From positions 32,001 through 96,000 of the IMG/VR virus record IMGVR_UViG_3300023276_000007: 64,000 nucleotides of DNA; one strand, 5' to 3'. The notes below the pieces were generated by a model, which was given only the letters and a program-made list of their open reading frames with translations, searched no databases and was not told where the DNA came from. Of this stretch, positions 9,477 to 60,858 are shown in pieces; the first letter of the stretch is position 1, and the number at the start of each line of letters is the position of its first letter. A program made the translations under genes and the position numbers. The DNA comes from a virus.

Positions 9477-12400
9477 GTGACTTATGTAAAGCCACAAGTT
9501 AAAGTATTTCAAGAGTTTCAAGCCGCTCCGGAAGCTGTCGTTCAGAACCTGAACGCGTTCGTATTCGGACCGCACTATCAACTCTTTAGATACGCAGAAT
9601 CCTCTGAGAAAGCTTTAGTTAGCTTAGGGGATTATGATAAAGATAACGACACAGATTACTTGTGGCCTAATCAGCCGGCATTGTCTGTCGTTGACCAATC
9701 TTTCACCAAACTTTACGCAGACGATGCGCTTTTAAAGTATATCAGCTTTGCTGAGTCAGCGGTTAACCCGTTGGTTCTTACAAGTGCTAGTGTACGGAAT
9801 AAGCTTAGAGCTGCTCCAAGAATAGGTGCTACTACCTCTGCGGGTAACATTGACGTCACAGTCAGTGGTGTTCACAATGGTGGCGCAAATCTTCCGGAGA
9901 GCTATTACGTCTATCCTGCAGAAAGTTTCATTATCGGCTCAGCAGCCGGTGAATTAAATTATATTACGACTGACGGACTTAAAGGATCTATTGCAGTTCC
10001 TGCAGATGCTACGTTAGCTAACAAGGTTGTAGAAGGCCCGGACGGAGTCGCTTTAGACTTTGACCTTACTGGATTGGCAGTTAACGCTCCAAGACAGATT
10101 GTCGTGGCAGGTGCTTCATCAAGCTTCACACTTACACAGTTGAAGAGCAGAATACCTTCACACATTGCAGATGCAGAAGCAGCCGACGCTCTTAGAGTAA
10201 CGGTAGCAGATGCAGCACTCTCGGTTACATATAACCCAGGAACAAGCAATGAACTCTCTGTCAGCTTCGACATTGGCGGCGGTGGTGACTCAGTCGCTGC
10301 GGCTAGAGCTGCTGTTGTTGCAGTTACAGACATTCTCGAAGATTGGGAAGTAAGTGATATCTCTGGCGACGGACTCGATGCAGTTACTACTGTAGAAGAC
10401 CAAGACGCTGCAGACCTTGTTGCTGCCACTACTAACATCTTAGATGATTATGCGTTCTACACAGTATTCGCTAACTCAATTATCTTTAAGACTGAGAATG
10501 GGTTCAACCGTTCAGCTGGTCTTTTCAAAGACGTCGAAGTCGGTGACAGAATACGTCACGTCGTAACTCCAGTCAGCACAGGTGTCCCTGAAGAAGTCTT
10601 CAGCACAGTTGTTGGTTTCGAGCCAGACATCCTTAACGCTACAGTTTCTGACCAAACACCTGCCGACGACAACGCAGAGAACCAACTAAGCACAGATTTA
10701 AGTGCTGGTGATTCTTCCGTCCTAGCTGGTGGTGGTGATAATCAGAACACTGGACTTCTTGTAGGCGGTAACGCAGCAATCTATCTTCTCGATCAGACTG
10801 CTACTTACGATGACGCTTTCGGAGATCAATCACAAGGTGTAAGCGATCTAGACATCACAGTTACGATCGTAGCAGGCGGAGTTGCCACTAGTGGTAATGT
10901 CACTGCTAACGTCTCTAATGCTTCAGGAACGTACAACCGTACAGGTGTTCCAATAGTTGCAGATGCTAACTACCCTGATGGTAGTATCTATATCGGTAGC
11001 AACATGGTTCTCGCCTTTGACGCTACAGGTGATACTTCTGGATCAGGCGGTGGACCTGACAGAGAATTCAAAGCTGGTGACAGTTATGAAGTATCTGGAG
11101 TCCTTACCCCAGTTAACGCTGTTAACAATCTTATTGTCGAGGGTTCTTACTCTGGTCAGCAAGATACTACTTACAGACTAGAAGTTGTTCGTGGCGGACT
11201 TTTCGATAGAACAGTTGTTGCTCAGCCAGGTGTTAACTACTTCGGTAGAGGCCATAACGCTGTCTACGCTAATACAGTTATTACTTCTGCAGGTCAGCCT
11301 GCTGATACAGAAACCCTCACATTAAATGATGGGTTTAACAGTGTTGTCTTCGAGTTCGATAACAATGCTACTGTTTCTGGTACTAACGTTGCTGTAGTTA
11401 TCGGTGGAACTGCCGCAGACACACTAACTAACTTACTAGCAGCTATCCAAGGAAGTTCTCTTGATGCTCAGGCAATCGAGACTGTCTCTGGTACTGAGAT
11501 CACAGTTACGTCTAACAACCTAGCTAACGACCTCACTTCTGCAGGAACACCAACTAACTACTCTACAGTAGATACCGCACTATCAACTCCGACAGCCTCT
11601 ACGGTTATCGCAGCAGTAGTCGACATCTCTCAGTGGACTGGTGGTGATCTTGATGACGAGTATCGTCTAGTTGTTACTAAAGCAGGTGGTAACCTTGTTT
11701 CGACTGAGTTCGCTCTTGAGTCTAACGCTGGTGATAACCAGAACGGTATTTCCTTCCCAGCCTTCGCTACATCTGTAGACGTCGGTATCAAAGGACTTGC
11801 AATCACTCTTACTGATGGTGGCGCTGTTAACCCAGCCTTCGCTGTAGGTGAGACTTTCGTTCTAGACTTGAGACTCTCAAGACCTAAGCTTAAGATTACA
11901 GACTCTGCAGGTATCGATCAGCAGACTAACGTTGTAGTTGCAGATGGTGACATCATTAACGTCGGACTTAACGGCGTAACTGTTGAATTCCCTTCTAACA
12001 CCAACTCTAACGGTGGAATCGACATTAACGGCGGACTAAGCTTAGGCGACGTCTGGACTATTGAAGCTACTGCAAAAGCAAACGGACCTCTTAAGACTCT
12101 TGTTCTTAGTGAGCCTGTTTCTGATAACGTCGCAGCTGCAATCGACTCAGCAGGAGTTCCGGTACCAATACCTGACCTTTTCGCTATCGACCTGTTCTTG
12201 TTTAGCAACTCAGTCACTATCCCAAGTGAGCAGCGTGATCCTAACGTAGCCGCTGGTTTCTTTAACTGGCAAGGTATTGCAGCAAGCTTGACATCTAACT
12301 CTGGAATAACACTCCAGGATAGCAGATGGGTAGACCCAAGTGACAGTTCTATGCCTTACCTTGAATTATGGCAAGGTTCACTTTATGTAGAGTACAGAGC

Positions 12401-13715
12401 ATTACTCAGAGAGTATACTAGCTCAATCTTCTCTATATCTAACATTGACGATGTGGTCAGTTCACTCGGTCCAATTGTTCCAGACAACCCACTAGCTCTA
12501 GGTGTTTACAAAGCACTACAGAACAGTGCAGATGCTACCGTGTATTTCATGGGAGTTGAATCTGATGATGTTGCTGGATACTCTAAGGTCCTAAGTAAAG
12601 CTACTCTTTCTGATAAGCTTTACAGTCTCGTACCTCTTACGTTCGACGATACAATCCACGGATTGGTTGATGCGCATGTTGACGAGATGTCCACAGAAAA
12701 TCGTAAGAGATGGAGAATAGCATTCCTCGCAGCTGAGACCAGCTTCGAAAACGCAATCCTTTGGGGTGGTAACCATCCTACTAATGGAGTGTGGAACGCT
12801 ACTATCACTGACGATACACGAGCTGTCGGTACTCAATACACAAGAGTTGAGTTCACAGAGTTCGCAAACCTACTAGGTACTGTTGCAGTTGGCGATGAAA
12901 TTCGTTTCAACTTCGATATCGATGCTTGGGGTAACGAGACTCACACGTCAGCTGTCGTAGCAGAATTGGAAAGTAATCAGGTTCTTTACCTCGATGCCGC
13001 CCAGCCAGCCGCGATCACAACTGCAGTGAAGATGGAAATTTACCATCCTCTAAGCACAAGTGAGCAGGCTTCTAAACTTGCAGAAACTTCCGCAGCTTAC
13101 GCCGACAGAAGAATGTATGCAGTTTACCCAGACGTACTGTTTAACGAAGGCGTTGCAGAACCAGGATACTTCGCAGCAGCGGGTGTAGCCGGGTTAGCAA
13201 GCTCAGTAGTTCCTCAGCAAGGGTTAACAAACACTGAAGTAGCAGGGTTCGATGACGTTCCAGCTATCTACAGCATCTTTAGTGAAGATGACCTTAACAC
13301 TATGGCCGAGGGTGGTACATTGATCGTAGCTCAAGAGCTACCAGGTGGTCCGGTATTTATCCGTCACCAGATCTCTACCAACCAACGTAGCGGTGTTCTT
13401 GCTAAGACTGAATTGTCAATGGTTAAAAACTTTGACTCCATCAGTTACTACTTCGCTAACAAACTGTCCCCTTACATTGGTAAGTATAACGTAACTCCAG
13501 CACTTGTTGACCACCTCCGCACAGAGATTCTGTCTGGTATCAACTTCTTGAGTTCATTTACAGGTGTAGGTCTTCTTAGCCCGCAGGTCATTAAGGAAAA
13601 CAGTGAGATAGTTCTCATTCAGCAGCACCCAACGCTCGCTGATACGATTATCGCCAATGTGAACCTGAACTTACCAGCGCCGCTTAACGTAATCGAACTA
13701 CACTTAGTAGTATAA
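9477..13715 (+). CDS. Contractile tail sheath protein with large inserted domains
   Basis: N-terminal YVKPQVKVFQEF..FVFGP; C-terminal sheath core (AAGVAG..PQQGLTN, GGTLIV, IRHQIST, PAPLNVIELHLVV); GTG start with SD AAGGAG. Confidence 0.85.
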   Translation: MTYVKPQVKVFQEFQAAPEAVVQNLNAFVFGPHYQLFRYAESSEKALVSLGDYDKDNDTDYLWPNQPALSVVDQSFTKLYADDALLKYISFAESAVNPLVLTSASVRNKLRAAPRIGATTSAGNIDVTVSGVHNGGANLPESYYVYPAESFIIGSAAGELNYITTDGLKGSIAVPADATLANKVVEGPDGVALDFDLTGLAVNAPRQIVVAGASSSFTLTQLKSRIPSHIADAEAADALRVTVADAALSVTYNPGTSNELSVSFDIGGGGDSVAAARAAVVAVTDILEDWEVSDISGDGLDAVTTVEDQDAADLVAATTNILDDYAFYTVFANSIIFKTENGFNRSAGLFKDVEVGDRIRHVVTPVSTGVPEEVFSTVVGFEPDILNATVSDQTPADDNAENQLSTDLSAGDSSVLAGGGDNQNTGLLVGGNAAIYLLDQTATYDDAFGDQSQGVSDLDITVTIVAGGVATSGNVTANVSNASGTYNRTGVPIVADANYPDGSIYIGSNMVLAFDATGDTSGSGGGPDREFKAGDSYEVSGVLTPVNAVNNLIVEGSYSGQQDTTYRLEVVRGGLFDRTVVAQPGVNYFGRGHNAVYANTVITSAGQPADTETLTLNDGFNSVVFEFDNNATVSGTNVAVVIGGTAADTLTNLLAAIQGSSLDAQAIETVSGTEITVTSNNLANDLTSAGTPTNYSTVDTALSTPTASTVIAAVVDISQWTGGDLDDEYRLVVTKAGGNLVSTEFALESNAGDNQNGISFPAFATSVDVGIKGLAITLTDGGAVNPAFAVGETFVLDLRLSRPKLKITDSAGIDQQTNVVVADGDIINVGLNGVTVEFPSNTNSNGGIDINGGLSLGDVWTIEATAKANGPLKTLVLSEPVSDNVAAAIDSAGVPVPIPDLFAIDLFLFSNSVTIPSEQRDPNVAAGFFNWQGIAASLTSNSGITLQDSRWVDPSDSSMPYLELWQGSLYVEYRALLREYTSSIFSISNIDDVVSSLGPIVPDNPLALGVYKALQNSADATVYFMGVESDDVAGYSKVLSKATLSDKLYSLVPLTFDDTIHGLVDAHVDEMSTENRKRWRIAFLAAETSFENAILWGGNHPTNGVWNATITDDTRAVGTQYTRVEFTEFANLLGTVAVGDEIRFNFDIDAWGNETHTSAVVAELESNQVLYLDAAQPAAITTAVKMEIYHPLSTSEQASKLAETSAAYADRRMYAVYPDVLFNEGVAEPGYFAAAGVAGLASSVVPQQGLTNTEVAGFDDVPAIYSIFSEDDLNTMAEGGTLIVAQELPGGPVFIRHQISTNQRSGVLAKTELSMVKNFDSISYYFANKLSPYIGKYNVTPALVDHLRTEILSGINFLSSFTGVGLLSPQVIKENSEIVLIQQHPTLADTIIANVNLNLPAPLNVIELHLVV

Positions 13716-24682: not shown

Positions 24683-26347
24683 ATGGCAATAGATAGAAAT
24701 TTAAGCGACGTCAATCAAGATGACTTCGATGCTGCAGAAGCTAAACTCATCGCAGCTATAAGGGAATATAACCCCTCAGTAGACTTAAGAGTAGGTACTG
24801 CCCTGCGTGATTTATTAGTGAGACAATCGTCTCTACTTAACGCTTATAATGAGAAACTTAACGAAGACCTGCGTAACAGTCAGTCTTTACTAGCGGTTAG
24901 TGAGAACCCAGACTTAGCAGATGATGATGTAATTGCTGGAATACTTTCTAACATCAATGTAGTCCGACGAGATGGATCACCTGCGTCTGGGTTGGTAATT
25001 GTTACAGTACCTAACGAAGAGCGGTTTATTGTTCCAGAGGGATACACCTTTACTACTTCAGGCGGGGTTGCGTATGCTACTACTCAAGCCTACAGAGCTA
25101 GACCCTCTGCAGTATTTACTGCCGGACTAGACGAGTTATTAATAACAGCACACACTACTGACGCACTGTTGGGGAGCTTCTATGTTATAATACCTGTAGT
25201 CGCCACCACCACAGGTTCTAACACTAATATAAGTTCTGGCATAGCCATGACAGTGACAGAAGCTCTCGTAGTAGGGCTTACCAGTCAAGAGTCATATAAC
25301 AACTTCACAGGCGGAGCTGATCAAGAGTCTATTGATGAACTCTTGGCCCGAGTACCGACAGCCCTAGGGCAGAAGTCCATGGAGTCGCAACAGTCGATAG
25401 GCTCAGTTCTTCAAGGACAATTCCCGTCTGTCAGGGAGGTATCTGCAGTAGGCTTTGGTTTCGAAGCCCAACTTAGAGACAAACATAATATCTTCGGATC
25501 TGCTATGGGTGGCAAGGTTGATATCTATGTAAGACCATCTACAGCTCCAGAGACTCTCACAATACTAGCTACGGCTACTAAAGTTTCAGATGGTGTTTAT
25601 AGCGTAACACTTACACCAGATGTTGCAGCAGGTATACAATTTATAAGATCTGTAACGTCACCAGATGTTATTACCCCGGCAACCCCTTTAACAGACCAGC
25701 TACCTGTAATCGGTTCTTACCCATTTACATTCAGCAGAGGTTCTGCCGGTATGGATAGCAGCTACCACGACTTTGACGTTAATAACCTTTCTGTAGAAAC
25801 GGCATATAGCGCCTATCAGACTGTGACTCTAGTCGTTACCGATATACCAGCCATAGTCGAAGACGGTCAGTCAGTATGGCCAGATACCTTGACTCTTAAG
25901 GTCGAAGCATACGTTGCTAAGCTTATTAGAGAGATACAGTCCTATGTAGACAGTGAAGTAGTTAGAAACTTGAAAGCCGATCATGTAGTACGTTCTTTCG
26001 TACCAGTGATGGTATCGTTAACAGCTACACTCAATGAATCCCCAGGAGAGACTCTGGACACGACTGCGATAAGACAGGCGGTTGTGGACTACATTAATTC
26101 TAAAACATTTGGAGAGATTGTCACACCATCACAGATTGATAGTGTGTTACACACCTTTCCTATCGTTACCGTTAAAAGCCTAGAGCTGTCCGCCGTGACT
26201 GTAGACGCTGCTAATAACATCATACCTATTGCAGGGCCTACTCTAGATATTAGTGATGTATCGGTTCCGGAATATTTGTTAAACGGTACGACTGCTATGT
26301 TCAGCGCGGACATACGGGATATATTCATTACCACAACGGAGTCTTAA
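24683..26347 (+). CDS. Baseplate wedge subunit (J/gp6-like)
   Basis: DLRVGTALRDLL, ASGLVIV, FTGGADQESIDELLAR, GGKVDIYV. Confidence 0.8.
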   Translation: MAIDRNLSDVNQDDFDAAEAKLIAAIREYNPSVDLRVGTALRDLLVRQSSLLNAYNEKLNEDLRNSQSLLAVSENPDLADDDVIAGILSNINVVRRDGSPASGLVIVTVPNEERFIVPEGYTFTTSGGVAYATTQAYRARPSAVFTAGLDELLITAHTTDALLGSFYVIIPVVATTTGSNTNISSGIAMTVTEALVVGLTSQESYNNFTGGADQESIDELLARVPTALGQKSMESQQSIGSVLQGQFPSVREVSAVGFGFEAQLRDKHNIFGSAMGGKVDIYVRPSTAPETLTILATATKVSDGVYSVTLTPDVAAGIQFIRSVTSPDVITPATPLTDQLPVIGSYPFTFSRGSAGMDSSYHDFDVNNLSVETAYSAYQTVTLVVTDIPAIVEDGQSVWPDTLTLKVEAYVAKLIREIQSYVDSEVVRNLKADHVVRSFVPVMVSLTATLNESPGETLDTTAIRQAVVDYINSKTFGEIVTPSQIDSVLHTFPIVTVKSLELSAVTVDAANNIIPIAGPTLDISDVSVPEYLLNGTTAMFSADIRDIFITTTES

Positions 26348-31284: not shown

Positions 31285-32180
31285 TGAGTAACGTACTTGA
31301 ATGGCTAAATGAGAACTCCTTAAGAGCTTACCCTTTTAAGGAAGATACCTCGCGCTCCGATGGTACGCATGTTATCCCTAACGACCTTATAGTTGATATG
31401 GCCTTCGTCGTACCCGTTGCTACCACAGACACGTTCTACCTTAAAACTTTAATGATATCAGGAACACAGATTACAGGTGTTCTTGCTAATCAAAACGAGA
31501 ATAACGTAGGAACGTTCTCAGTACCTGTAACTTCTCATAAAGAGAATGACGGCTACGAGATAGTAGGCGCTGGTACATACACGGATGCCAGAGGTAGAGT
31601 TGTTGTAGGAGACCTTACGGATCTTGCTATAAAACTTCCAGAAGGTGTTTATAACTATGAAGTAGAAGCTACAGCCTTTGAGCTTTCTGCTATCCGACCT
31701 GACCTTCGTAAGCTTAGGGGTATAAAGATAGAAAAGGCCGATGGGTCTGTATCCGACTTATTAACCGGTATAGTGACTCTGGTGTCAGGAACAAACGTAA
31801 CTTTAGAAAACCCTTCAGCAGGTCTTGTAAGAATCAATGCTATTGGTAACGAAGACTATATAGAAGACTGTGGAGATTGCCTTAACGGATTCTCTATACC
31901 TGACCCGATAAGAACTATTAACGGAGTGGGTGGAGACGAAACTGGCAATCTAAATTTAATCTCTACGGAGCAGTGTTTAGTAATAACCCCAGACGCATCA
32001 AACTTTGCAGTTAATCTTGCAGATACTTGTGCGCAGCCTTGTTGTGGCTGTACGGAGTTGGAATTCTTAACGACGTCATTGTCTACATTGAGAGATAGCC
32101 TCTCTAGACTTGATAACCTGTCCCAAGAGTTACAAGGTAGACAAACGGAGTTTTTCCAGAACGTACTAAGCTCACTATGA
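31284..32180 (+). CDS. Appendage paralog 1 (W-x3-N-x2-R-x-YPF family)
   Basis: EWLNENSLRAYPF; IRTINGVGGDETGNL; Cys cluster; C-terminal coiled coil. Confidence 0.55.
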   Translation: MSNVLEWLNENSLRAYPFKEDTSRSDGTHVIPNDLIVDMAFVVPVATTDTFYLKTLMISGTQITGVLANQNENNVGTFSVPVTSHKENDGYEIVGAGTYTDARGRVVVGDLTDLAIKLPEGVYNYEVEATAFELSAIRPDLRKLRGIKIEKADGSVSDLLTGIVTLVSGTNVTLENPSAGLVRINAIGNEDYIEDCGDCLNGFSIPDPIRTINGVGGDETGNLNLISTEQCLVITPDASNFAVNLADTCAQPCCGCTELEFLTTSLSTLRDSLSRLDNLSQELQGRQTEFFQNVLSSL

Positions 32181-39027: not shown

Positions 39028-41190
39028 ATGGCACGACAACCTTTTGAGTATGGCCCCGATTGTGATGGCCCTGATGTAGATATTAACATAATACCTACAT
39101 CTTTCCCATTGTGTGATGAAGTCGTCTTTGAAGATCCTGACTTACTACCCACCTGCACCGACTTTGAGACTGTAGATTTTATAGTTCCCCCAGTCTGCCC
39201 ATGTTTCCCTGAACGTATGGGTCTTACTGATAACTCGAATGCAAGTATTGCTTGTGGCGGGCCTCTACCTTCAATAACCTTTGATGCAGCTATCGTTAAC
39301 GTAGCACCGGACGACTGCTGTGCTCCAGAGTTTAAGCTTGATATACAGTTAGATATACAAGTACCTTGTGTAGGTGCTGTCGGAGGCTGTGCCGCTATAG
39401 TTGGTCAAGTTGACATCAAAATTGATGAAGGTCCGCTTGGATGGTTCTTTGATTGGGAAAAATGTATCGATGACCAAGGTAACATTATAAACGACCCCTG
39501 CTGTATTCGGCTAGTGGGTGAGATGTTTATACCTTGTATAGACGGTATAACATTTAAAGTTGAACATAATATCCAAGAGACCGGTGCAGTAGATATCCCT
39601 ACCATCGAGGAGTTTACTATAGAAGCGTCTGATGACGTTCCATGTGAATACGATGTAGTATTCGACATGCTAGTTCCTTTACCAGAGGACCCTACAATAC
39701 CTATAAGCCCTACAGACCCAAATATACCACCCGGCCAGAACTGCTGTAATGGTGTAGGTTATTGTCCCGACGAAGGTACGTTTAGCGACCTAGGAAAAAT
39801 GAAAACAGAGACTATTTCGGTCGTCACCAATATTACCTGTGATCTGGAAGGTAATTTAACTGTGGAGAGGACAGAACTTGAGTATGTTTGCGGGCTCCTT
39901 AAAGATTTCAGGATAGCTGGGAACGACGCGATTCCCTGCGCTGGGGCTCAGTCGTACAATGAGGATTGCTGTCCAAGCACTACGACGACAGATCCGGACT
40001 ACCCACCACCAACTACAGAGCCAGGTGAGGGCCCCTATGGCCCGTATATCCCGCCAGAAACCTGTCAGTGTCGGTGTGACAAATATTACGTGTGTGACAA
40101 AGAGACAGGGAAGACAATCCCAGACCTCTATGTTGAGGTTTACGACCTGTCCGGCGATGGTAGCTGTGCTTACCGTATTGTAGATGGTGACAGTGTAGAC
40201 GAGAATAACAACGCGGTAATTATGCACGAAGGCCTAGGATGTCCAGACCCTGACGAAAATATATCTAACGGTTCTACTACGTGGGTTCTAGCGTGTGAAC
40301 CCTGTAGTGATTGGCCGGATAACAGTACCACGACAACTACTACTACCACGACAACTACTACTACACCGCCTATCATCATCGATGAGAAGTACTATTGCGT
40401 ACAGATCGGTACCGGTGCTCCGAAGCAATGCGTTATCGGTGCAGCACTAGTTCCAGGATCACCAATCTCAGCAGGACCTTTCGATAGTGCGTCTGAATGT
40501 GCAGCAAACTGTAATACAAACAGCTACGAGTATGAAGAGTGCCCTGCCTCGACAACAACCACAACCACGACGACGACAACCACAACCACGACAACCACGA
40601 CAACCGCGACAACCGCACCTCCTATGGCGGCGGCTTGTGGTACTGACAATGGTCACCCAACTATGCTAGTCACTATGACTTGGACAGGTGGCCCAGCTAC
40701 TCGTGATTACATGGGATGTAATGACTGGGAGTCAGGCCAGCAGCGCGTCTTAAATGCCGATACCTATGACCGGTACCAGAACACCATGGGTGGTTGCCTA
40801 GGTGAAGAAGGTGAATATTGGAGAAAGGGTGCAGACAGTGACGCATTTAACATGTCAGGTTTCGTAGATTTCTTCGGAGGATTTTTCTGGCAACTTAAGA
40901 ATGAATATAACGGCGTTGGAGAATTGAACCATGGTACAGCAGCTATTGATGGTTACGTTTATGATAGCCTCTCTGCGTTCTCACCAGGGCCAGGCGCGTT
41001 TTACCCTTTCGGTAACTCATTCCTAGACGGCCCTTTTGGTGGAAATACCGCCTTCCCTCCGCCGTCCACAGGCATGAGCGGGTGTTTAACCGGGGCATAC
41101 CTCGGAGATCTTAAATCTGCACAGCTCAGCGGTAGCGTGACGTTCGCTAACGGTGTTACGGTGACGTGGGAACAAGGAACAGGATGGTAA
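39028..41190 (+). CDS. Cys-rich virion protein with poly-Thr tracts and variable C-terminal domain
   Basis: Dense Cys; T13 and T18 tracts; C-terminal HPTMLVTMTWTGG...SGSVTFANGVTVTW. Confidence 0.6.
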   Translation: MARQPFEYGPDCDGPDVDINIIPTSFPLCDEVVFEDPDLLPTCTDFETVDFIVPPVCPCFPERMGLTDNSNASIACGGPLPSITFDAAIVNVAPDDCCAPEFKLDIQLDIQVPCVGAVGGCAAIVGQVDIKIDEGPLGWFFDWEKCIDDQGNIINDPCCIRLVGEMFIPCIDGITFKVEHNIQETGAVDIPTIEEFTIEASDDVPCEYDVVFDMLVPLPEDPTIPISPTDPNIPPGQNCCNGVGYCPDEGTFSDLGKMKTETISVVTNITCDLEGNLTVERTELEYVCGLLKDFRIAGNDAIPCAGAQSYNEDCCPSTTTTDPDYPPPTTEPGEGPYGPYIPPETCQCRCDKYYVCDKETGKTIPDLYVEVYDLSGDGSCAYRIVDGDSVDENNNAVIMHEGLGCPDPDENISNGSTTWVLACEPCSDWPDNSTTTTTTTTTTTTTPPIIIDEKYYCVQIGTGAPKQCVIGAALVPGSPISAGPFDSASECAANCNTNSYEYEECPASTTTTTTTTTTTTTTTTTTATTAPPMAAACGTDNGHPTMLVTMTWTGGPATRDYMGCNDWESGQQRVLNADTYDRYQNTMGGCLGEEGEYWRKGADSDAFNMSGFVDFFGGFFWQLKNEYNGVGELNHGTAAIDGYVYDSLSAFSPGPGAFYPFGNSFLDGPFGGNTAFPPPSTGMSGCLTGAYLGDLKSAQLSGSVTFANGVTVTWEQGTGW

Positions 41191-41194
41191 ACTT

Positions 41195-42211
41195 ATGAGT
41201 AGCTTATTTTTTAAAGACGACCACGGTCAATTTATCAAACACGGCAACAAATGCTACACGAAGGTAGGTGCCTCTCAGGTTATGCCCGACGTTACAACAG
41301 CCCCGGATGGTGGGTCTTCTTTTGTTGATTGCGATGATTGCAACTCTGGTACTACGACCACTACTACGACCACTACTACGACAGCCTTATCCGGGTTATC
41401 ATTTGGGCAAACCAACACTCCTGCAGAAGGCGACCCAGAAAGTACAGTAGTTGGCGACTTAACACCTACCGGCGGTACAGGCCCGTTCACGTATGCAATG
41501 AAAGCAGGGGCAGGTGATGGTGACAACGGTAGTTATAAGATTGTAGGATCACAGTTACAGTTAAGCGCGGCACCTAGTATCTCGGAACCGACCGACAGTA
41601 TACGAGTAGAAGTTACCGATAGCCTAATGGCCACCTTTGACGACACCTTCTCAGTTGATGTATACCCAACAACAGGATCTATGACCGTTGAACTAGCAGA
41701 AGGTTCACCGCTATACGACGACGCCTCTCCTGGTGAGGACGTAGGTGAAGTATCTGCAGGAACTAACTTAGGCGACATAAACGCTGCCAATGGTAATCCA
41801 TCCACACGACTAGTTTACGTATCAGGACCGGAAGTCTCCTTCTTAGGTAAGGACTGGAGTCCTAACGATTACGGCGAGCTCTATACAGACGCAGTTCCGT
41901 ATTCAGTGCCAGACCAGCACGAGTGGGGTAGTGATACACCTGCCAACCCTGGTTTGTATATGCACGACTATCACGAAATGCCTTATGTAGGTGATTATGT
42001 GTCTCGGGTATCTTTCCGTATAGATGCAAGTAACCAATTAGACATTACTAACCAGACAACAGGTGGTACTATTGATAATAGCGTCGGCGTGACCTCTGGT
42101 AACGATCCAAACTTATTAGTACCAGATGGAACCATCGACACAGCCGCTTTTCAGGAAGTGACTTTTGCTAACGGACAAACCTGGAAGTGGCAACAGGAAT
42201 CTGGATGGTAA
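41195..42211 (+). CDS. Poly-Thr + cadherin-like domain virion protein
   Basis: T11; cadherin-like VVGDL..FTY..GAGDGDN..IRVEVTD; half-domain; C-terminal VTFANGQTWKW. Confidence 0.65.
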   Translation: MSSLFFKDDHGQFIKHGNKCYTKVGASQVMPDVTTAPDGGSSFVDCDDCNSGTTTTTTTTTTTALSGLSFGQTNTPAEGDPESTVVGDLTPTGGTGPFTYAMKAGAGDGDNGSYKIVGSQLQLSAAPSISEPTDSIRVEVTDSLMATFDDTFSVDVYPTTGSMTVELAEGSPLYDDASPGEDVGEVSAGTNLGDINAANGNPSTRLVYVSGPEVSFLGKDWSPNDYGELYTDAVPYSVPDQHEWGSDTPANPGLYMHDYHEMPYVGDYVSRVSFRIDASNQLDITNQTTGGTIDNSVGVTSGNDPNLLVPDGTIDTAAFQEVTFANGQTWKWQQESGW

Positions 42212-42866: not shown

Positions 42867-44711
42867 ATGGCTATAACATATACAATAGCAGCAGATCCAA
42901 CGGCGTCGGGAAACGACGCCAATAACTTGGACTTTGAAATAGAGAACCCAGACGTACTGGAGTTATCTGCTAACGCCCCTTTGACTGCCGCCACCTATAA
43001 GGTAACGGTAAAAGCCGTTGATGGTGTATCTGGTGAATTTGGCTACGGCTTCTTTGACGTAGTAATCAACGCGGCTGTCACAGCGCTATCCCTTAATCAA
43101 ACAAACACCCCTCAGGCGGGTGACCCAGTAGACACTTTAGTAGGTGACCTCCAAGTTACAGGGGGAACTGCTCCTTACACGTTTGCTTTAGTAGCAGGTG
43201 CTGGTGATGGTGACAACACACATTACCAAGTTGATGGTTCTAATATAGAGTTAAGTGCCTCTGGCGGCACAACAGCCGGAACTGATGCAATAAGAGTAGA
43301 AGTTACCGACGATAAAGGCTATACGTTTGAACAATCTTTAACTGTTAATATAGCCGTTGCTCCGACCACGACCACTACGGCCGCCGCTACTACGGCACCT
43401 CCAGGACCACTAGCCTGTGGAACCCCTAATAGCGACCCTACTATGATCGTTACTATGTCCTGGACGGATGTTGATGTAACCAAGAGTTACCTAGGGTGTA
43501 CCTGGACTAATGGGGAAACTAAAGAATTATATACCACCTTCTATCAGGCAGTGGTTGGATCGCTGGAAACGTGGCGTAGAGATGCAGGACCAGACCCACA
43601 ACTGTTTCATTTACACGGTAATGAATATTATCCGGGGACAGCCCCCTCCCTCTACGAAACCATATTGGGAGGAGCTAGTATCGGCGTAGTATATCATACT
43701 AATTATAGACTTCAGATCTTTAAGGATTCAACTTTTACAGGATCCTCTGGCAATGTAGGAGTAAGTGCGTCCTCCCCGACAGCGGGTGCTCTAGTTACGG
43801 GTGCCCCTATAGCCCCAAGTCATAAAAGTGGTTCGGTCACTTTCACGAATGGCATCACCGTAAGTTGGGGGGAAGGTAACTTATGGCCACCACCGATTAC
43901 GGATATAACCCTTAACCAGACTAATACACCGACAGAGGGTGACCCAGTAGCTACTTTGATTGGTGACTTAACACCGACAGGTGGTACTGCATCATTTACG
44001 TATGCACTGGTAGCTGGTACCGGAGACACTGATAACTCTCATTACCAAATAACCGGCGCTAACCTAGAGTTAAGTGCCTCTGGTGGCTCAACATCCTTAA
44101 CAGACTCAGTACGTATAGAAGTGACTGATGCGACTGGACGTAAATTCGAGAAGGCCTTTACTGTGACAGTCGACCCCGTACCTATGGCAAGCCCTTGTTT
44201 ACCAGACCTCGGACATCCGTCTATGCTAGTAACACTGTCCTGGACAGGAGGACCAGCCACTAGGACATTCTTAGGGTGTACTGATTGGGCACCAGGACAA
44301 CAGCGCGTAGTGAACGCAACTGGCTATAACTTAACTTACACGCCGACCACCGCAGTATCTGGCGTTAATTCTGCTGGATGGAATGCTGCCGGCGGTGGCG
44401 ACGGCGACCTTATTAGATTCGGAGGGACTACCCTTCTAAGCTCATTCTCTAGTAGACAAGCTGGTAGCGTACGGTTTAACGGTATAGAGGGTGTCATCGG
44501 TGCCCCTGCCGACCCAACCTTCTCAATCTTTCGAGTTGACTTTAAATCCTTTACTGGCTACAACGGGAGCTTCAACAACTTAGTTACGGCAGGGTTCAGT
44601 CCTACTAAAACTAATGTCGGCGTAGGGGTACCTCTAGACGCCAGTAGAAAGAGCGGCTCAGTTACCGATGTAAACGGTATTACGTATAGCTGGCAACCTA
44701 ACGGCTGGTAG
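42867..44711 (+). CDS. Cadherin-like adhesin with Thr-rich linker and two variable domains
   Basis: Two full cadherin-like domains, PTTTTTAAATTAPP linker, two P(T/S)M.VT.SWT domains. Confidence 0.7.
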   Translation: MAITYTIAADPTASGNDANNLDFEIENPDVLELSANAPLTAATYKVTVKAVDGVSGEFGYGFFDVVINAAVTALSLNQTNTPQAGDPVDTLVGDLQVTGGTAPYTFALVAGAGDGDNTHYQVDGSNIELSASGGTTAGTDAIRVEVTDDKGYTFEQSLTVNIAVAPTTTTTAAATTAPPGPLACGTPNSDPTMIVTMSWTDVDVTKSYLGCTWTNGETKELYTTFYQAVVGSLETWRRDAGPDPQLFHLHGNEYYPGTAPSLYETILGGASIGVVYHTNYRLQIFKDSTFTGSSGNVGVSASSPTAGALVTGAPIAPSHKSGSVTFTNGITVSWGEGNLWPPPITDITLNQTNTPTEGDPVATLIGDLTPTGGTASFTYALVAGTGDTDNSHYQITGANLELSASGGSTSLTDSVRIEVTDATGRKFEKAFTVTVDPVPMASPCLPDLGHPSMLVTLSWTGGPATRTFLGCTDWAPGQQRVVNATGYNLTYTPTTAVSGVNSAGWNAAGGGDGDLIRFGGTTLLSSFSSRQAGSVRFNGIEGVIGAPADPTFSIFRVDFKSFTGYNGSFNNLVTAGFSPTKTNVGVGVPLDASRKSGSVTDVNGITYSWQPNGW

Positions 44712-44713
44712 TT

Positions 44714-45211
44714 ATGGATAATCACGGAGTGACGATACATCTCTACGGGTACCCATGCTCCGGTAAAACTACGATAGGTGGTTCGTTAGCTAAAGCATTA
44801 GGTAGAACTATAATCCTAGATGGCGACTATGTAAGAAAACATATAAGCAAAGACTTAGGATTTTCTAAGAAGGACCGTATAGAGAACGCCCGCAGAATAG
44901 GTAGCTATACCTCCCTATTAAACGACCAAGGGTTTAATGCGGTAGTATGTACAGTAGCTCCTCATAAGAAGTGTCGAAGACTAATACGCGACCACGTCAA
45001 GTACTACACCTCTGTGTTTATAGACACACCTTTAAAGGATTGTATAATGCGTGACACTAAAGGTATGTACAAGAAGGCTGTGTCCGGAGAGATACAAAAT
45101 TTTACAGGAGTACATTCTTTTATAGATAGAGGTACACCCGACATCGTAGTAACACCTGGGCCAGTACATCTTCAAGTCCAGTACATAATTTCACAATTGG
45201 CTGGAAATTAA
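44714..45211 (+). CDS. cysC: Adenylyl-sulfate (APS) kinase
   Basis: P-loop GYPCSGKTT; LDGDYVRK..SKDLGFSKKDRIENARRIG; RDTKGMYKKA..GEIQNFTG. Confidence 0.93.
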   Translation: MDNHGVTIHLYGYPCSGKTTIGGSLAKALGRTIILDGDYVRKHISKDLGFSKKDRIENARRIGSYTSLLNDQGFNAVVCTVAPHKKCRRLIRDHVKYYTSVFIDTPLKDCIMRDTKGMYKKAVSGEIQNFTGVHSFIDRGTPDIVVTPGPVHLQVQYIISQLAGN

Positions 45212-45265: not shown

Positions 45266-46390
45266 ATGTTGAATATCGTAAGCGGTTGTCCTCGCTCTGG
45301 GACTAGTCTATTAATGAACGTCATGCTCTCCATCTTTGGTGAAAAAAACATTATGGGTGGTGGCAAGCCCAACCTTGACTTTGACTACGACGCTGAGCTT
45401 GCTAAGCTAAGCAACAGAGAACAGGCTATGGTTTGGTCTCAAGAGAGAGCCTTAGCTGCAAAAGGCCAGACGAGAGAAAAGAGGTTGGAGATACAAGCGA
45501 AAACTATGGATCTTAACCCCAACGGGTTCTTCGAGTGTCAGTACAGCGTTCAAGGTATTTCCTATAACTACCCAGACCGCGAGCAACTTAAAAAGTATGT
45601 TAGCGACGGCGGGGATAAACTATGCATGAAAATAGTCTCCAGTGGTCTGCGGGTTAGTGACCCAAGGTTTATTGGGAAGGTAGTCTACCTTATAAGACAT
45701 CCTAGGTCTGTAGCTAAAAGCCAAGAAAGGCTACGTACGCAGCTTGATATGCTTTTTGAATCAAACCCTGGTTATGAGGATATGAAGCAAAAGATGGTTA
45801 TACATTCCCCGCGTATGTATATCAACTCTACAAGAGCAGCTTCCGAGTTTTTCCTAGAGAATCCAGACATACCTGTTCATCCATTACACTACGACGAGCT
45901 CATTGCTACTCCTGAGAAAGTTATTAAAGACTTAGCGGGATTCTTGGGTAAGAACAAAAAAACCGTATGGTCTAAGGCTAAAGGTATCGTAGATCCTAAG
46001 TTAAAGAGAAGTTACCCTGAAGATATCGAAAGTGACCTATGGGAAGACGCAGAAGAGGTTTACCGACTTTTTGATAAGCAAGACTACCAAGGCGTTGTCG
46101 ACTACCTCAAGCCTATGCACAGAAACACTAATCAAGCAAACTCTAATTGGGTATGTGCACGTAACGGTATTCTGACTAACAAGGCACAGTGTACAAACTG
46201 CATCAATAATGAAACCGTAAGAACCAACTTTAAAAAAGCAGCTAACGAGAAGAAGATTGATTGGCGTAATGAGCCTTGCCTCTTTGAGTGCGGTATGAAC
46301 CTCTCCTTAGAAGACGATAAGGTACTTACCTTAGAAGAAAGCACCAAGAATAACTTCTGGAGAGCAGGTGCTGAAAGGCTGGTTAAATGA
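45266..46390 (+). CDS. PAPS-dependent sulfotransferase with Cys-rich C-terminus
   Basis: 5'-PSB motif SGCPRSGTSLLM; 3'-PB motif LIRHPRSVAKS; YDELIATP...L..FLG. Confidence 0.85.
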   Translation: MLNIVSGCPRSGTSLLMNVMLSIFGEKNIMGGGKPNLDFDYDAELAKLSNREQAMVWSQERALAAKGQTREKRLEIQAKTMDLNPNGFFECQYSVQGISYNYPDREQLKKYVSDGGDKLCMKIVSSGLRVSDPRFIGKVVYLIRHPRSVAKSQERLRTQLDMLFESNPGYEDMKQKMVIHSPRMYINSTRAASEFFLENPDIPVHPLHYDELIATPEKVIKDLAGFLGKNKKTVWSKAKGIVDPKLKRSYPEDIESDLWEDAEEVYRLFDKQDYQGVVDYLKPMHRNTNQANSNWVCARNGILTNKAQCTNCINNETVRTNFKKAANEKKIDWRNEPCLFECGMNLSLEDDKVLTLEESTKNNFWRAGAERLVK

Positions 46391-47325
46391 ACAAACTAAC
46401 CTGTATTCTAACCTTCTTAAATGAAGGTATAGAAGTCTTTAGGACGGTTAAAAGCATACGGGACAGTGTAGGGGATACTGTAGATATCTTATTGGTAGAC
46501 GACTCCAGTACAGATGGGGTGCCCTATAAAGTTGTTGCCAACAAATTTAACTGTGACTATGTGAAGTCGGATACTCGACAAGGAGTGGCTGGCGCGAGAG
46601 ATCTTGGAGTGTCTTTAGCTAAGACGCCATACTGTATACTCTTCGATGCCCACATGAGGTTCGACAAAAGAAGTAATTGGGCAGAACGAGTTGTAGAAGA
46701 AATAGAAAATAACGACAGGCGTATTTACTGCACAACTTGTGTATCCTTGTGGTATCCGTTTATAGAGCAGTCCCAAAGTGTTACCCACCAAAGAAGCACA
46801 GGAGCTTACCTAGCGACATCTTTCAAGGATAGCCACACTAGCCTTGCGGCTAAGTGGATACCGCTCAAACTAACAGGCGTAGAACCAGTTCCTTTAGTTC
46901 TTGGGGCGACCTATGCCTTCTCTGTAGAGTACTACCGTGAGTTGCGAGGTTTAGCCGGCTTGAAGTATTATGGCAGTGACGAACCTTGGATATCCCTAAA
47001 GTCTTGGGCGATAGGTGATGGCTGCGCAGTTATAACAGATGTTAACATAGGCCACCTATTCCGATCCAAGCACCCGTATCCAGCGTATGGACTAGACGCC
47101 CTCTATAATAAACTTTTTATGGCGGCTGTAGTTTTTCCTAAGAAGACTAAGTGGTTAGAGGACCTAATGAGGTTGGGCGGCCCAAAGGTAAGTAAGATGT
47201 TTAAAGAAAATGAAACTCAGTTTAGGGAAACAAGGTCTTGGTTTGCAGAAGTGGAGAAGCCCGGCTGGCGGGAGACATTCTCTCAATTGAATGGAGAATT
47301 TACTGAACAGGTAATTACGTTATGA
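46387..47325 (+). CDS. GT-A glycosyltransferase resembling polypeptide GalNAc-transferase (GT27/GT2-like)
   Basis: FLNE, RTVKSI, ILLVDDSS, GVAGAR, FDAH, YGSDE, GHLFR..HPY. Confidence 0.85.
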   Translation: MNKLTCILTFLNEGIEVFRTVKSIRDSVGDTVDILLVDDSSTDGVPYKVVANKFNCDYVKSDTRQGVAGARDLGVSLAKTPYCILFDAHMRFDKRSNWAERVVEEIENNDRRIYCTTCVSLWYPFIEQSQSVTHQRSTGAYLATSFKDSHTSLAAKWIPLKLTGVEPVPLVLGATYAFSVEYYRELRGLAGLKYYGSDEPWISLKSWAIGDGCAVITDVNIGHLFRSKHPYPAYGLDALYNKLFMAAVVFPKKTKWLEDLMRLGGPKVSKMFKENETQFRETRSWFAEVEKPGWRETFSQLNGEFTEQVITL

Positions 47326-58668: not shown

Positions 58669-60858
58669 ATGAATAAAATGACAGTAAGTCCGTTTTGGAC
58701 TCCTGAGTATATAGATACAGAGTTATGGCTTGATGCATCTGATACAGATACTATCACAGAAGCTGCCGGAGCTGTTAGTCAATGGAATGATAAAAGCGGA
58801 AATGATTGTCATGCAGTTCAAGCTTCTAGCATAAGTCAACCAATAACCAACTCACGCACATTAAACGGTTTAAACGTCCTCGACTTTGATGGTAGCAATG
58901 ATGATATGTCTATGGTAGCGGGGCCACAGCCTGATTCCGCACAGACAATCATGATAGCAGTAGTAGACTTGGATTCGCCATTGAAAGCAGAAGGACAACG
59001 ATTGCTTAACTTCCAAGTAGGCGCGAGTTCACGGTGGTCGTTACGTCTTGAAGATGAGCTTCTTGCTCAGTATACCAACGCAGCTTCTTTTACTGGCCCC
59101 GAAATAGCCATAACATCAGGAGCAAGACTAATATCTGGCTATCGAGATGGTACGACAGTTGGGGTGAGTGTTAATGGCGGTGTGCCTGTTACAGATACAA
59201 GTGGAGGAAATGCTACAGTAGATACATGGAAGGTGGGTTCGTATGATTCAGCGAATGATTTCCTAGATGGAGGATTTGCCGAAGTTGTTGTTTTGAAATC
59301 ATACACCTTAGAGACTCTCCAAAAACTAGAAGGTTACCTCGCTTGGAAGTGGGGAATACAAACTTCTTTACCACTAGATCACCCTTATCGTTTTAACGGA
59401 ACACTATTTGGGTATGCTCTTACATATTGGACTCCTGCCGATATAACTACAGAAGCTTGGTATGATGCAGTTGATTCAAGCACCATCACAGAATCAGGCG
59501 GAGAAGTTAGTCAGTGGGATGATAAAAGTGGTAATGGGAATCACATGGAACAAGGAACGGGATCTAAGCAACCTTTAACCAACTCGACAAACATAAACGG
59601 ACTGAATACCATATCCTTCGACAAGACATCCTCTCAGTTAATGGAAACATCAAGCAACCCTTTCGGTGGAAGCGTTGTTGATGCTCATGTGTTTCAAGTT
59701 TTCAAAACAGCTTCTACCTTAGTAACTGGTACAAACTTTAGTTTAACAGGTAGTAGCAACGGTGGTAACAAATGGCAGGCTCTTGTTTGGGATGATACTA
59801 ATTGTTACTTTGATACCGGTGGAATTAGTCCACCAAACCGACTCCAAACCAATAGTTGGGCTACAACCAGTGAAGAAATTATGGGGTCTTTTTACGGTTC
59901 AGATACCGAAGAGGTGCAGGAAATCTGGAAGAATGGTACTCTCTCTGCGAGTGATGCCACAGGCCACACAGTTAGTACAGTAGGTAACATGCAGATAGCT
60001 GTTCAAGGTACGATTAATCATCAAACATTTGAACTTGCTGAAATGGTTGTTGTCAATGGGACCATGACTACTTCAGATAGGCAGAAGATGGAAGGATACC
60101 TCGCTTGGAAGTGGGGACTAGTTACCAAACTTCCTTCAGACCACCCTTACCGATTTGATGGAACACTATTCGGATATGAGAAGTTTTGGTCACCGGAAGA
60201 GATAGTCACAGAAGCTTGGTACGACGCTTCTGATGCAAGCACCATTACAGAAGCAGGTGGATCTGTTAGTCAGATTGATGACAAGAGTGGAAATAATGTG
60301 CATGCTGTCCAAGCAGTTGGTGGAGATCAACCGTTGATAGTTGCGGGTGCTATGAATGGATTAGATGCCCTTCATTTTGTAGGGAGAAATAATCACATGG
60401 ATGGTAATAGCCTTATCGATTTTGACTGGGTTATAACTGTTATCCATTATCTCGCTACCCCTGCTTTTAGTCAAGCGTTAGGTAGCCAAACTCTCCCTAG
60501 GGTGGGATACACCATCCAGTACAGAGGAGATATCAACATTGATAGATGGAACTCTAGCCTGTACACAAATGGTAACCCACTAAGCACTGTCGGAGCTACC
60601 CCGATAACCGTCGGTCCGACTATAGTTGGACGAGACTTACAAGGCTTGTCTAACTTCGCCCTACAACTAGGTGGAGATCGTGGACTTCCCAATCGAGGCT
60701 GGGATGGATACATAGGTGAGGTTATCTACGGTAATCAGACTCTCGATACAGCCACAAGACAACTACTAGAAGGTTACCTTGCATGGAAGTGGGGAACACA
60801 AACTTCCCTACCAGTAGGTCATCCTTACAAAACTGATGGAAGTCTCTTCGGTTATTAA
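58669..60858 (+). CDS. LamG/concanavalin-A-like adhesin, 3 repeats
   Basis: Same repeat unit x3. Confidence 0.7.
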   Translation: MNKMTVSPFWTPEYIDTELWLDASDTDTITEAAGAVSQWNDKSGNDCHAVQASSISQPITNSRTLNGLNVLDFDGSNDDMSMVAGPQPDSAQTIMIAVVDLDSPLKAEGQRLLNFQVGASSRWSLRLEDELLAQYTNAASFTGPEIAITSGARLISGYRDGTTVGVSVNGGVPVTDTSGGNATVDTWKVGSYDSANDFLDGGFAEVVVLKSYTLETLQKLEGYLAWKWGIQTSLPLDHPYRFNGTLFGYALTYWTPADITTEAWYDAVDSSTITESGGEVSQWDDKSGNGNHMEQGTGSKQPLTNSTNINGLNTISFDKTSSQLMETSSNPFGGSVVDAHVFQVFKTASTLVTGTNFSLTGSSNGGNKWQALVWDDTNCYFDTGGISPPNRLQTNSWATTSEEIMGSFYGSDTEEVQEIWKNGTLSASDATGHTVSTVGNMQIAVQGTINHQTFELAEMVVVNGTMTTSDRQKMEGYLAWKWGLVTKLPSDHPYRFDGTLFGYEKFWSPEEIVTEAWYDASDASTITEAGGSVSQIDDKSGNNVHAVQAVGGDQPLIVAGAMNGLDALHFVGRNNHMDGNSLIDFDWVITVIHYLATPAFSQALGSQTLPRVGYTIQYRGDINIDRWNSSLYTNGNPLSTVGATPITVGPTIVGRDLQGLSNFALQLGGDRGLPNRGWDGYIGEVIYGNQTLDTATRQLLEGYLAWKWGTQTSLPVGHPYKTDGSLFGY

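Follow-up and report, generated by a model that had tools for sequence, protein, structure and literature searches.

The window analysed here is a stretch of 64,000 nucleotides covering positions 32,001 to 96,000 of the virus record IMGVR_UViG_3300023276_000007 in IMG/VR, a linear contig of 106.8 kb from a large uncultured tailed phage, with an estimated completeness of 57%, in which all genes lie on the plus strand. A compact block of four genes in this window encodes an adenosine 5'-phosphosulfate (APS) kinase, a sulfotransferase, a glycosyltransferase (GT) and a protein of 231 residues, p231. The block is directly preceded by open reading frames (ORFs) for proteins with long threonine runs, the last of which ends 2 nucleotides ahead of the kinase gene. 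The GT, P0001 (46387..47325, + strand), is a standalone, soluble GT-A enzyme of 312 amino acids with an ATG start. It matches PF00535, and it matches GT27, the family of the eukaryotic polypeptide N-acetylgalactosaminyltransferases (GalNAc-transferases), over the full domain.

The chain of P0001 begins at strand beta-1 (residues 4-10), and neither the sequence nor the predicted model has an N-terminal hydrophobic segment. No ricin domain was found in it by Pfam, and the chain ends at residue 312 after the helices of the catalytic domain. The first-pass annotation, which had described an enzyme with neither a transmembrane anchor nor a lectin domain, was correct on this point; Pfam shows PF00535 alone. 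The same annotation had reported the full motif order of GT27, and every motif that it listed is present, at residues between 10 and 231: FLNE (10-13), RTVKSI (19-24), ILLVDDSS (34-41), GVAGAR (66-71), FDAH (86-89), PLVLGATYA (169-177), YGSDEPWISLKSW (195-207) and IGHLFRSKHPY (221-231). The order stands, but the WGGEN motif itself does not, being YGSDE in P0001 with Glu at the position of the GT27 Asn. The DxH metal motif D87-A-H89 (46645..46653, + strand) aligns to the DSH of GalNAc-T2 and PGANT9. The HMMER alignments make Y195-G-S-D-E199 (46969..46983, + strand) the counterpart of WGGEN, the xED motif. The C-His, H223 (47053..47055, + strand), is a candidate third metal ligand, since IGHLFR is aligned to VGHVFR of GalNAc-T2.

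The Pfam match of PF00535 covers residues 6-119 (E 1e-15, 58.6 bits against a cut-off of 23.3). The PF00535 model also spans GT27 catalytic domains and does not discriminate between GT2 and GT27. An NCBIfam scan of P0001 gave only weak, sub-threshold matches to polysaccharide GTs. When all PDB sequences were searched with phmmer, the 15 top matches were all polypeptide GalNAc-transferases, the best with an E-value of 1.7e-10 over residues 4-240, a span that takes in the DxH, the Gal/GalNAc-T motif and GH.FR..PY. Run against the PDB, a family profile built from 21 sequences matched GT27 with an E-value of 8.2e-25 over profile positions 7-238. Matches to TagF, TarP, heparosan synthase, DPMS and similar enzymes were limited to the first 90-130 positions of the profile. 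Clustering with lipid or polysaccharide GT2 enzymes, which the first-pass annotation had named as grounds for abandoning its assignment, was thus not seen; such enzymes match the nucleotide-binding half alone.

The predicted fold gives the same picture. The AlphaFold2 model of P0001 has a mean per-residue confidence (pLDDT) of 89.8 and a predicted TM-score (pTM) of 0.90. With this model as the query, the first ~50 Foldseek matches were all GT27 enzymes, with E-values down to 6e-18. A Foldseek-independent search, all against representatives, placed GalNAc-T1 at a Z-score of 27.8 over 283 residues with a root-mean-square deviation of 2.8 Å, and Toxoplasma GalNAc-T3 at 27.6. The best folds outside GT27 were K4CP chondroitin polymerase (Z 18.6), B4GALNT1 (18.5), PmHS2 (17.9) and SunS (12.6), which leaves a gap of 9 Z units between GT27 and any other GT-A enzyme. 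Sequence identity to GT27 enzymes is 17-21%. Judged by sequence and modelled fold together, the resemblance of P0001 to GT27 is far above chance, and no known family is closer to the eukaryotic polypeptide GalNAc-transferases than that of P0001. Its description as a relative of the GT27 catalytic domain that is soluble and has no lectin part is therefore borne out.

The comparison with individual GT27 structures shows where the likeness ends. Mouse GalNAc-T1 (8v9q), human GalNAc-T2 (2ffu/4d0t), Drosophila PGANT9 (6e4r) and Toxoplasma GalNAc-T3 (8uhv) share with P0001 the GT-A domain, an identical motif order and the metal site of DxH and C-terminal His. The Gal/GalNAc-T-type motif is followed in both by S.(K/R).W and GH.FR..PY. 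Thr-rich polypeptide acceptors are a further likeness, which for the phage enzyme is only likely, from its gene context. GT27 enzymes have a type II anchor, a stem and a ricin-type lectin domain, whereas the phage enzyme is without all three; they act in the Golgi lumen, whereas the phage enzyme is predicted to be cytoplasmic and is of phage/prokaryotic origin. The beta-face Asn of WGGEN is replaced by the invariant Glu of the phage YGSDE, so mechanism and donor may differ.

In both HMMER alignments, Asp198 faces Glu334 and Glu199 faces Asn335 of GalNAc-T2, and a helix begins at residue 198 in the AlphaFold2 model. The pattern WGGENxExSFRxW, with Asn at the position of the xED Asp, is absent from P0001. 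Among 169 family representatives, Asp87 and His89 are kept in all 169, Glu199, His223, Lys205 and Glu13 in 168 each, and Asn12 in 165. Replacement of DxD by DxH is a trait of GT27 and GT60, both polypeptide Ser/Thr O-GT families (Taujale et al. 2020, PMC7185993). Inverting GT-A enzymes use the acidic xED residue, located where helix alpha-F begins, as their catalytic base, and in the retaining enzymes this position varies; clade 5 of the GT-A enzymes joins the retaining GT27 and GT60 with GT7 and GT2-CHS, which are inverting (PMC7185993). As aligned, the family pairs the metal motif of GT27/GT60 with an invariant carboxylate at the base position of the inverting relatives. Because Asn is replaced by an invariant Glu at this position, a GalNAc donor and a retaining alpha-linkage cannot be assumed, and Glu199 may make P0001 inverting, unlike GT27. 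The first-pass assignment as a polypeptide GalNAc-transferase accordingly survives as a resemblance that falls short of membership in GT27; the residue at the WGGEN Asn is a family-invariant Glu.

Two other peptide-modifying families were considered and rejected for P0001. The GT60 polypeptide alpha-GlcNAc-transferases of Dictyostelium and Trypanosoma share the DxH and the Ser/Thr polypeptide acceptors, but the PF11397 model matched nothing in the contig at E<=10, and the Pfam scan did not report it either. Solved GT60 structures were not found among the fold matches of the P0001 model. The SunS-type glycocin GT (GT2) is likewise a bacterial GT-A enzyme that modifies ribosomal peptides, but its fold is distant (7msp/7msn, Z 12.0-12.6) and it gave no sequence match. 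The residue that SunS modifies is Cys, which makes it an S-glycosyltransferase, and its C-terminal domain is a different one.

P0001 belongs to a large prokaryotic family. An exhaustive search at E<1e-3 found 1762 cluster representatives, and 285 of these had E-values below 1e-30. Among 170 matches to the domain model, 60 are standalone, 62 have a C-terminal extension, 34 have extensions at both ends and 14 have an N-terminal extension; the added parts are a GT2 domain of the classical kind and a LanC-like domain (in P0028, PF05147, E 6e-30). Nearly all of 80 family genome loci are in Bacteroidales. In three Bacteroidales genomes the family members match over their full length at E<=1e-54, and all other GT2 genes match at E>=1e-11 and in the N-terminal part only. 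The motif order NE, D(D/N)xS, DxH, (Y/W)Gx(D/E)E, S.K.W, GH.(Y/F)R..PY is complete in P0001 and conserved in the 169 representatives. P0001 lies within a clade of nine standalone enzymes of ~310 amino acids, with 98% support, which includes the homologue at metagenome locus L105. The phage collection held no match to the region or to the GT protein, and a metagenome scan with the single GT protein found nothing. A second metagenome scan with alignment A2 as the query found L105-L108; viral-contig scans with the sulfotransferase and with alignment A2 found nothing.

The threonine runs lie in modular paralogues encoded directly upstream of the kinase-sulfotransferase-GT-p231 block. P0171 (39028..41190, + strand; 720 amino acids), a candidate acceptor, is Cys-rich, very much so in its N-terminal half, and has two poly-Thr tracts and a C-terminal tip module. 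Its T13 tract is at residues 434-446 (40327..40365, + strand) and its T18 tract at residues 509-526 (40552..40605, + strand). Mixed ACN codons encode both, as they do the Thr tracts of P0172 and P0173, so it is at the level of the amino acid that the tracts are preserved. The candidate acceptor P0172 (41195..42211, + strand; 338 amino acids) has a small Cys module, a T11 tract located by a composition scan (41351-41383, + strand), an immunoglobulin (Ig)/cadherin-like domain and a tip module. P0174 (42254..42841, + strand), a paralogue of 195 amino acids, has an Ig/cadherin-like domain without a poly-Thr tract; it is 75% identical to the N-terminus of P0173 and has weak matches to Big_13 and FlgD_ig. 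P0173 (42867..44711, + strand; 614 amino acids), the third candidate acceptor, has Ig/cadherin-like domains, the Thr-rich linker TTTTTAAATT (43365-43394, + strand; composition scan) and two tip modules. The four proteins match one another with E-values of 1e-14 to 1e-78, the C-terminal modules of P0171 and P0173 with 3e-20. The C-terminal module, of ~180 amino acids, comes after the Thr tract and ends in ..SGSVTF.NG.T..W..G.GW; the Ig/cadherin-like unit reads ..LNQTN.P..GD..VGDL..TGGT.P.T.ALVAGAGDGDN... Pfam and PHROGs gave only sub-threshold Ig-like matches for the poly-Thr proteins. P0171, P0172 and P0173 (39028-44711) are the only ORFs of the whole contig in which at least four Thr follow one another. 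A predicted complex of the GT with P0172 residues 28-92 and Mn scored 0.01, a value that counts neither for nor against binding.

The pairing of such a GT with poly-Thr or poly-Ser proteins recurs with unrelated proteins. In L105, where the GT is 52% identical, two unrelated proteins with T9-T18 runs lie directly upstream. The metagenome contig L107 (1-12085) has a GT homologue of 315 amino acids (32% identity) among six large poly-Ser/poly-Thr proteins, one with a run of >150 residues. In L005 (9641-12118) and L006 (9773-12238) the GT27-like domain is inside proteins of ~820 amino acids, 24-27% identical and with the catalytic motifs retained. Upstream of the L005 GT is a protein with an S/T run of 56 residues, and upstream of the L006 GT one with mucin-like TTTTEAPG tandem repeats. 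Of nine family loci, five show the pairing; of 15 viral GT2 loci that served as a rough control, one does (Fisher p 0.015).

The cellular relatives stand in peptide-maturation clusters. The fused GT genes share operons with a radical S-adenosylmethionine (radical-SAM)/SPASM maturase, a small ORF, an outer-membrane beta-barrel, a C39-peptidase ABC exporter and an HlyD protein; the B. fluxus-type operon adds a TIGR04150 pseudo-radical-SAM protein (258.6 bits, over the cut-off). By tblastn, radical-SAM proteins are at 59 of the 80 loci and the C39 domain at 37, and 68 have at least one of radical-SAM, C39 and HlyD within 8 kb. Double-glycine-leader precursors (..EGxLRGG|F..) with CxNxxC-type repeats were found at 43 of the 80 loci, and at 23 of these 43 the precursor has a poly-Thr or (TP)n tract ahead of a hydrophobic tail. 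The Bacteroidales GT2-GT27-like-LanC-like fusions, from the TIGR04148/TIGR04150 'GG-Bacteroidales' systems, are of one family with the phage GT (35-46% identity, all catalytic residues) and share with it a peptide context, many precursors having poly-Thr or TP. They differ in being fused to a GT2 and/or LanC-like domain and in their radical-SAM/SPASM and C39 exporter partners and secreted peptides of ~100 amino acids. The phage enzyme is standalone and lies beside large structural-type proteins and sulfation genes. Areas with radical-SAM and LanC (and 'GlyS') genes have been listed in silico, with no experiments (PMC10352776).

As a control, 12 loci of TIGR04148 radical-SAM clusters were fetched, and the GT was present in two. 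The TIGR04148-type precursors of these 12 loci have no poly-Thr tracts, whether the GT is present or absent, so in bacteria the link to poly-Thr holds only where the precursors are of the EGxLRGG|F class. Peptide tailoring is thus the role of the cellular relatives, and their poly-Thr link is partial. L125 (7331-8878) and L126 (7290-8837) encode a GT27-like protein of 516 amino acids in TIGR04148-type clusters whose precursors, ..LVGG|..CNCACYYANSGGSS.., are short and free of poly-Thr, so the acceptor residues may differ in that subtype. In Prevotellamassilia timonensis (L061, 7245-16469) one operon holds a GT2-GT27-like-LanC-like fusion of ~800 amino acids, a radical-SAM/SPASM maturase, a precursor of ~100 amino acids, an outer-membrane beta-barrel of ~975 amino acids and a C39-peptidase ABC exporter. 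The precursor has the EGxLRGG|F leader, CxNxxC repeats, a poly-Thr/TP tract and a hydrophobic tail, and similar operons are at L037, L043, L048, L066 and others. By their gene content these operons encode a candidate family of glycosylated thioether-type peptides. The first-pass suggestion of a protein acceptor for the phage enzyme thus gains from context only, namely the poly-Thr proteins upstream, the four other viral or metagenome loci and the relatives in clusters for peptides that are made on ribosomes and modified after translation (RiPPs).

The other genes of the block encode sulfation functions and p231. CysC (44714..45211, + strand; 165 amino acids) is an APS kinase, the enzyme that makes 3'-phosphoadenosine 5'-phosphosulfate (PAPS); it matches PF01583 (E 6e-38), has the P-loop GYPCSGKTT and scores 129.5 bits against TIGR00455, slightly below the cut-off of 138.7. 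The PAPS-type sulfotransferase (45266..46390, + strand; 374 amino acids) is over the cut-off for both PF13469 (33 bits) and PF00685 (27.8 bits), and its PAPS loops are GCPRSGTS, like the 5'-phosphosulfate-binding loop, and IRHPRSVAKS, like the 3'-phosphate-binding loop. A CysC domain with a P-loop and a sulfotransferase domain with PAPS-binding loops make up a PAPS-dependent sulfation module. Stop and start codons overlap as ATGA both between the sulfotransferase and the GT and between the GT and p231. Relatives of the sulfotransferase number 286. The length of the longest contig is 65577 for both P0179 (a sulfotransferase relative) and P0002 (a GT relative), and 14143 for both P0180 (sulfotransferase) and P0007 (GT), and these matching lengths hint at a conserved GT-sulfotransferase pair. 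In Pfam the GT is the contig's one PF00535 gene, and a PF01370 epimerase, ATP sulfurylase and PAPS reductase were not found in the contig, a gene set in keeping with a simple glycan and with APS drawn from the host.

The last gene, p231 (P0175; 47322..48017, + strand), is a conserved partner of the GT and has a C-terminal Cys cluster. A homologue lies 3' of the GT in L105 (7976-8662; tblastn E 1e-19), and the cluster RWNTCxxCP...C..C.C is in both. A search for p231 relatives returned only its own cluster and no family match; its AlphaFold2 model has a pLDDT of 41.6, and the ESM Atlas gave a sub-threshold lead to DUF6171. A scan for promoters and terminators gave counts equal to those in shuffled sequence.

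Elsewhere in the window are the genes of a contractile tail, with a sheath domain in an ORF of 1412 amino acids (9477-13715) and a baseplate wedge (24683-26347). The sheath ORF is unusually long for its type, only its last ~150 residues matching the tail-sheath phrog_279. The ORF 58669-60858 encodes a virion structural protein (phrog_10356, E 1e-75) whose nearest isolates are cyanophages and Pseudanabaena, Rheinheimera and Erythrobacter phages, relatives that point to an aquatic phage. One database record names a homologue 'botulinum neurotoxin type A', which looks mis-annotated.

The explanation that fits these observations best, and which we consider probable, is that the GT O-glycosylates poly-Thr linkers in phage fibre-like proteins in the cytoplasm. 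It is favoured because GT27 enzymes alone match the whole domain, with a 9-unit lead in Z, and because DxH marks the polypeptide Ser/Thr O-GT families GT27 and GT60. It is favoured also because the sole Thr runs of the contig adjoin the sulfation-GT block and the pairing recurs with unrelated proteins, because 68 of the 80 cellular relatives are near peptide-maturation genes and 23 of 43 precursor loci have poly-Thr/TP, and because the sulfotransferase, the GT and p231 overlap by ATGA, the GT being the only PF00535 gene. During infection the soluble GT-A enzyme, Mn2+-dependent as we picture it, would move sugar from a UDP-sugar to Thr hydroxyls. Its targets would be the poly-Thr linkers of P0171-P0173, modified in the host cytoplasm ahead of assembly. 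That the attached sugar is then sulfated with PAPS is possible rather than probable; phage CysC would supply the PAPS and the translationally coupled sulfotransferase would act on the sugar after its attachment. The linkers would thereby become mucin-like spacers that are stiff, carry negative charge, resist proteases and keep the C-terminal tip modules held out, a role likely similar to that of mucins and cellulase linkers. We infer the acceptor and the fibre identity of the poly-Thr proteins from gene context; donor sugar, anomeric outcome and the placing of sulfate on the glycan are likewise the reading we put on it.

Three other explanations were weighed. A GT2-type enzyme acting on a non-protein acceptor, such as host capsule, lipopolysaccharide, a lipid carrier, a small molecule or phage DNA, would have the sulfotransferase acting on that product too and would make the poly-Thr tracts plain linkers whose adjacency is coincidental. 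Pfam giving PF00535 only and the weak NCBIfam matches being polysaccharide GTs agree with it, as do the WGGE(D/N)-type motif common to chondroitin and heparosan synthases, the next-best folds (Z 17.9-18.6), and the homologous phage loci that have no poly-Thr proteins. An invariant acidic residue at the base position is, further, typical of inverting polysaccharide GTs (PMC7185993). It is nonetheless unlikely in our judgement, since polysaccharide and lipid GT2 enzymes match the N-terminal 90-130 positions only and trail GT27 by the full Z gap, DxH is a GT27/GT60 trait, 68 of the 80 cellular relatives are in peptide-maturation clusters and not in polysaccharide loci, and the poly-Thr/Ser pairing recurs with unrelated proteins.

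A peptide or protein GT whose targets are found elsewhere, in the host, among the remaining phage proteins or in a small secreted peptide like those of the Bacteroidales clusters, so that the upstream poly-Thr tracts are no substrates of it, we hold to be about equally improbable. The RiPP-like clusters of the cellular relatives, with their precursors of ~100 amino acids, would suit it, and so would the TIGR04148-type precursors that have no poly-Thr and the GTs of L002-L004 that have no poly-Thr genes nearby. Set against this, no double-glycine-leader peptide, radical-SAM enzyme or C39 exporter is found among the ORFs from 39 to 51 kb, and the contig's only Thr runs are directly upstream, a pairing repeated in L105, L107, L005 and L006. 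A genuine orthologue of GT27 that the phage took up from a eukaryote not long ago, and that makes the retaining alpha-GalNAc-O-Thr linkage (Tn antigen) as the animal enzymes do, would account for the GT27 motif order and fold. The low identity to GT27, the YGSDE with its invariant Glu and the missing stem, anchor and lectin domain make it very improbable, and P0001 is embedded in the 1762-member prokaryotic family, which is mostly Bacteroidales and has 285 members at E<1e-30.

Glycosylation of the poly-Thr linkers, the explanation preferred here, has points that weigh against it. The contig is only ~57% complete. The three poly-Thr genes are paralogues, so their adjacency to the GT counts as one event, and the case for a virion role of the proteins consists solely of their position after the baseplate genes and weak Ig-like matches. 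The phage loci L002/L003 and L004, whose GT homologues retain the motifs, and the more divergent L007 and L009 have no poly-Thr protein within 10 kb, and the two TIGR04148-type Bacteroidales clusters that hold the GT have precursors without poly-Thr. The closest solved relative of the sulfotransferase, CurM (E 0.006), is uninformative on the acceptor. Mucin-type alpha-GalNAc chemistry, as the aligned residues stand, is without support, Glu199 replacing the GT27 Asn.

Mucin-type O-glycosylation is regarded as eukaryotic and Golgi-based. To our knowledge, glycosylation of phage-particle proteins has been shown experimentally only for a few actinobacteriophages. Virion glycosylation is known in mycobacteriophages (Freeman et al. 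2023, Cell Host Microbe, as cited in PMC12619734), and the actinobacteriophage glycans are described there at the C-termini of capsid and tail-tube subunits. The likeness is that of phage-encoded GTs decorating the phage's own structural proteins. The sites differ, being subunit C-termini there and, as candidates, internal poly-Thr linkers of fibre-like proteins here; the enzyme here is GT27-like and comes with a PAPS-sulfation module, unlike the mycobacteriophage system. In the literature that was searched, no paper links a phage GT with mucin-like Thr-rich proteins and none is on a phage module for sulfation and glycosylation.

In the most far-reaching form of the proposal, a sulfated phage mucin would carry sugar on every linker Thr, placed by a cytoplasmic enzyme from a prokaryotic sister family of GT27, and then sulfate, forming a bottle-brush, polyanionic virion stalk; the family, with DxH and an acidic residue at the base position, would be a living intermediate between the inverting (GT7/GT2-CHS) and retaining (GT27/GT60) branches and, as part of the same picture, a candidate prokaryotic root of eukaryotic mucin-type O-glycosylation. 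Taken as a whole this is tentative and rather unlikely. If glycosylation of the linkers is true, large environmental phages would decorate poly-Thr linkers by means of a soluble enzyme related to those that initiate mucin sugars in animals, supplemented in this phage by a sulfation module, and it would be explained why phage fibre genes commonly have poly-Thr tracts. The enzyme would be a small, readily expressed one for glycosylating Thr-rich peptides, and the gut Bacteroidales would hold a new class of glycosylated RiPPs. For GT-A clade 5, the family would provide a concrete test case for the origin of GT27 and for the switch between inverting and retaining mechanisms.

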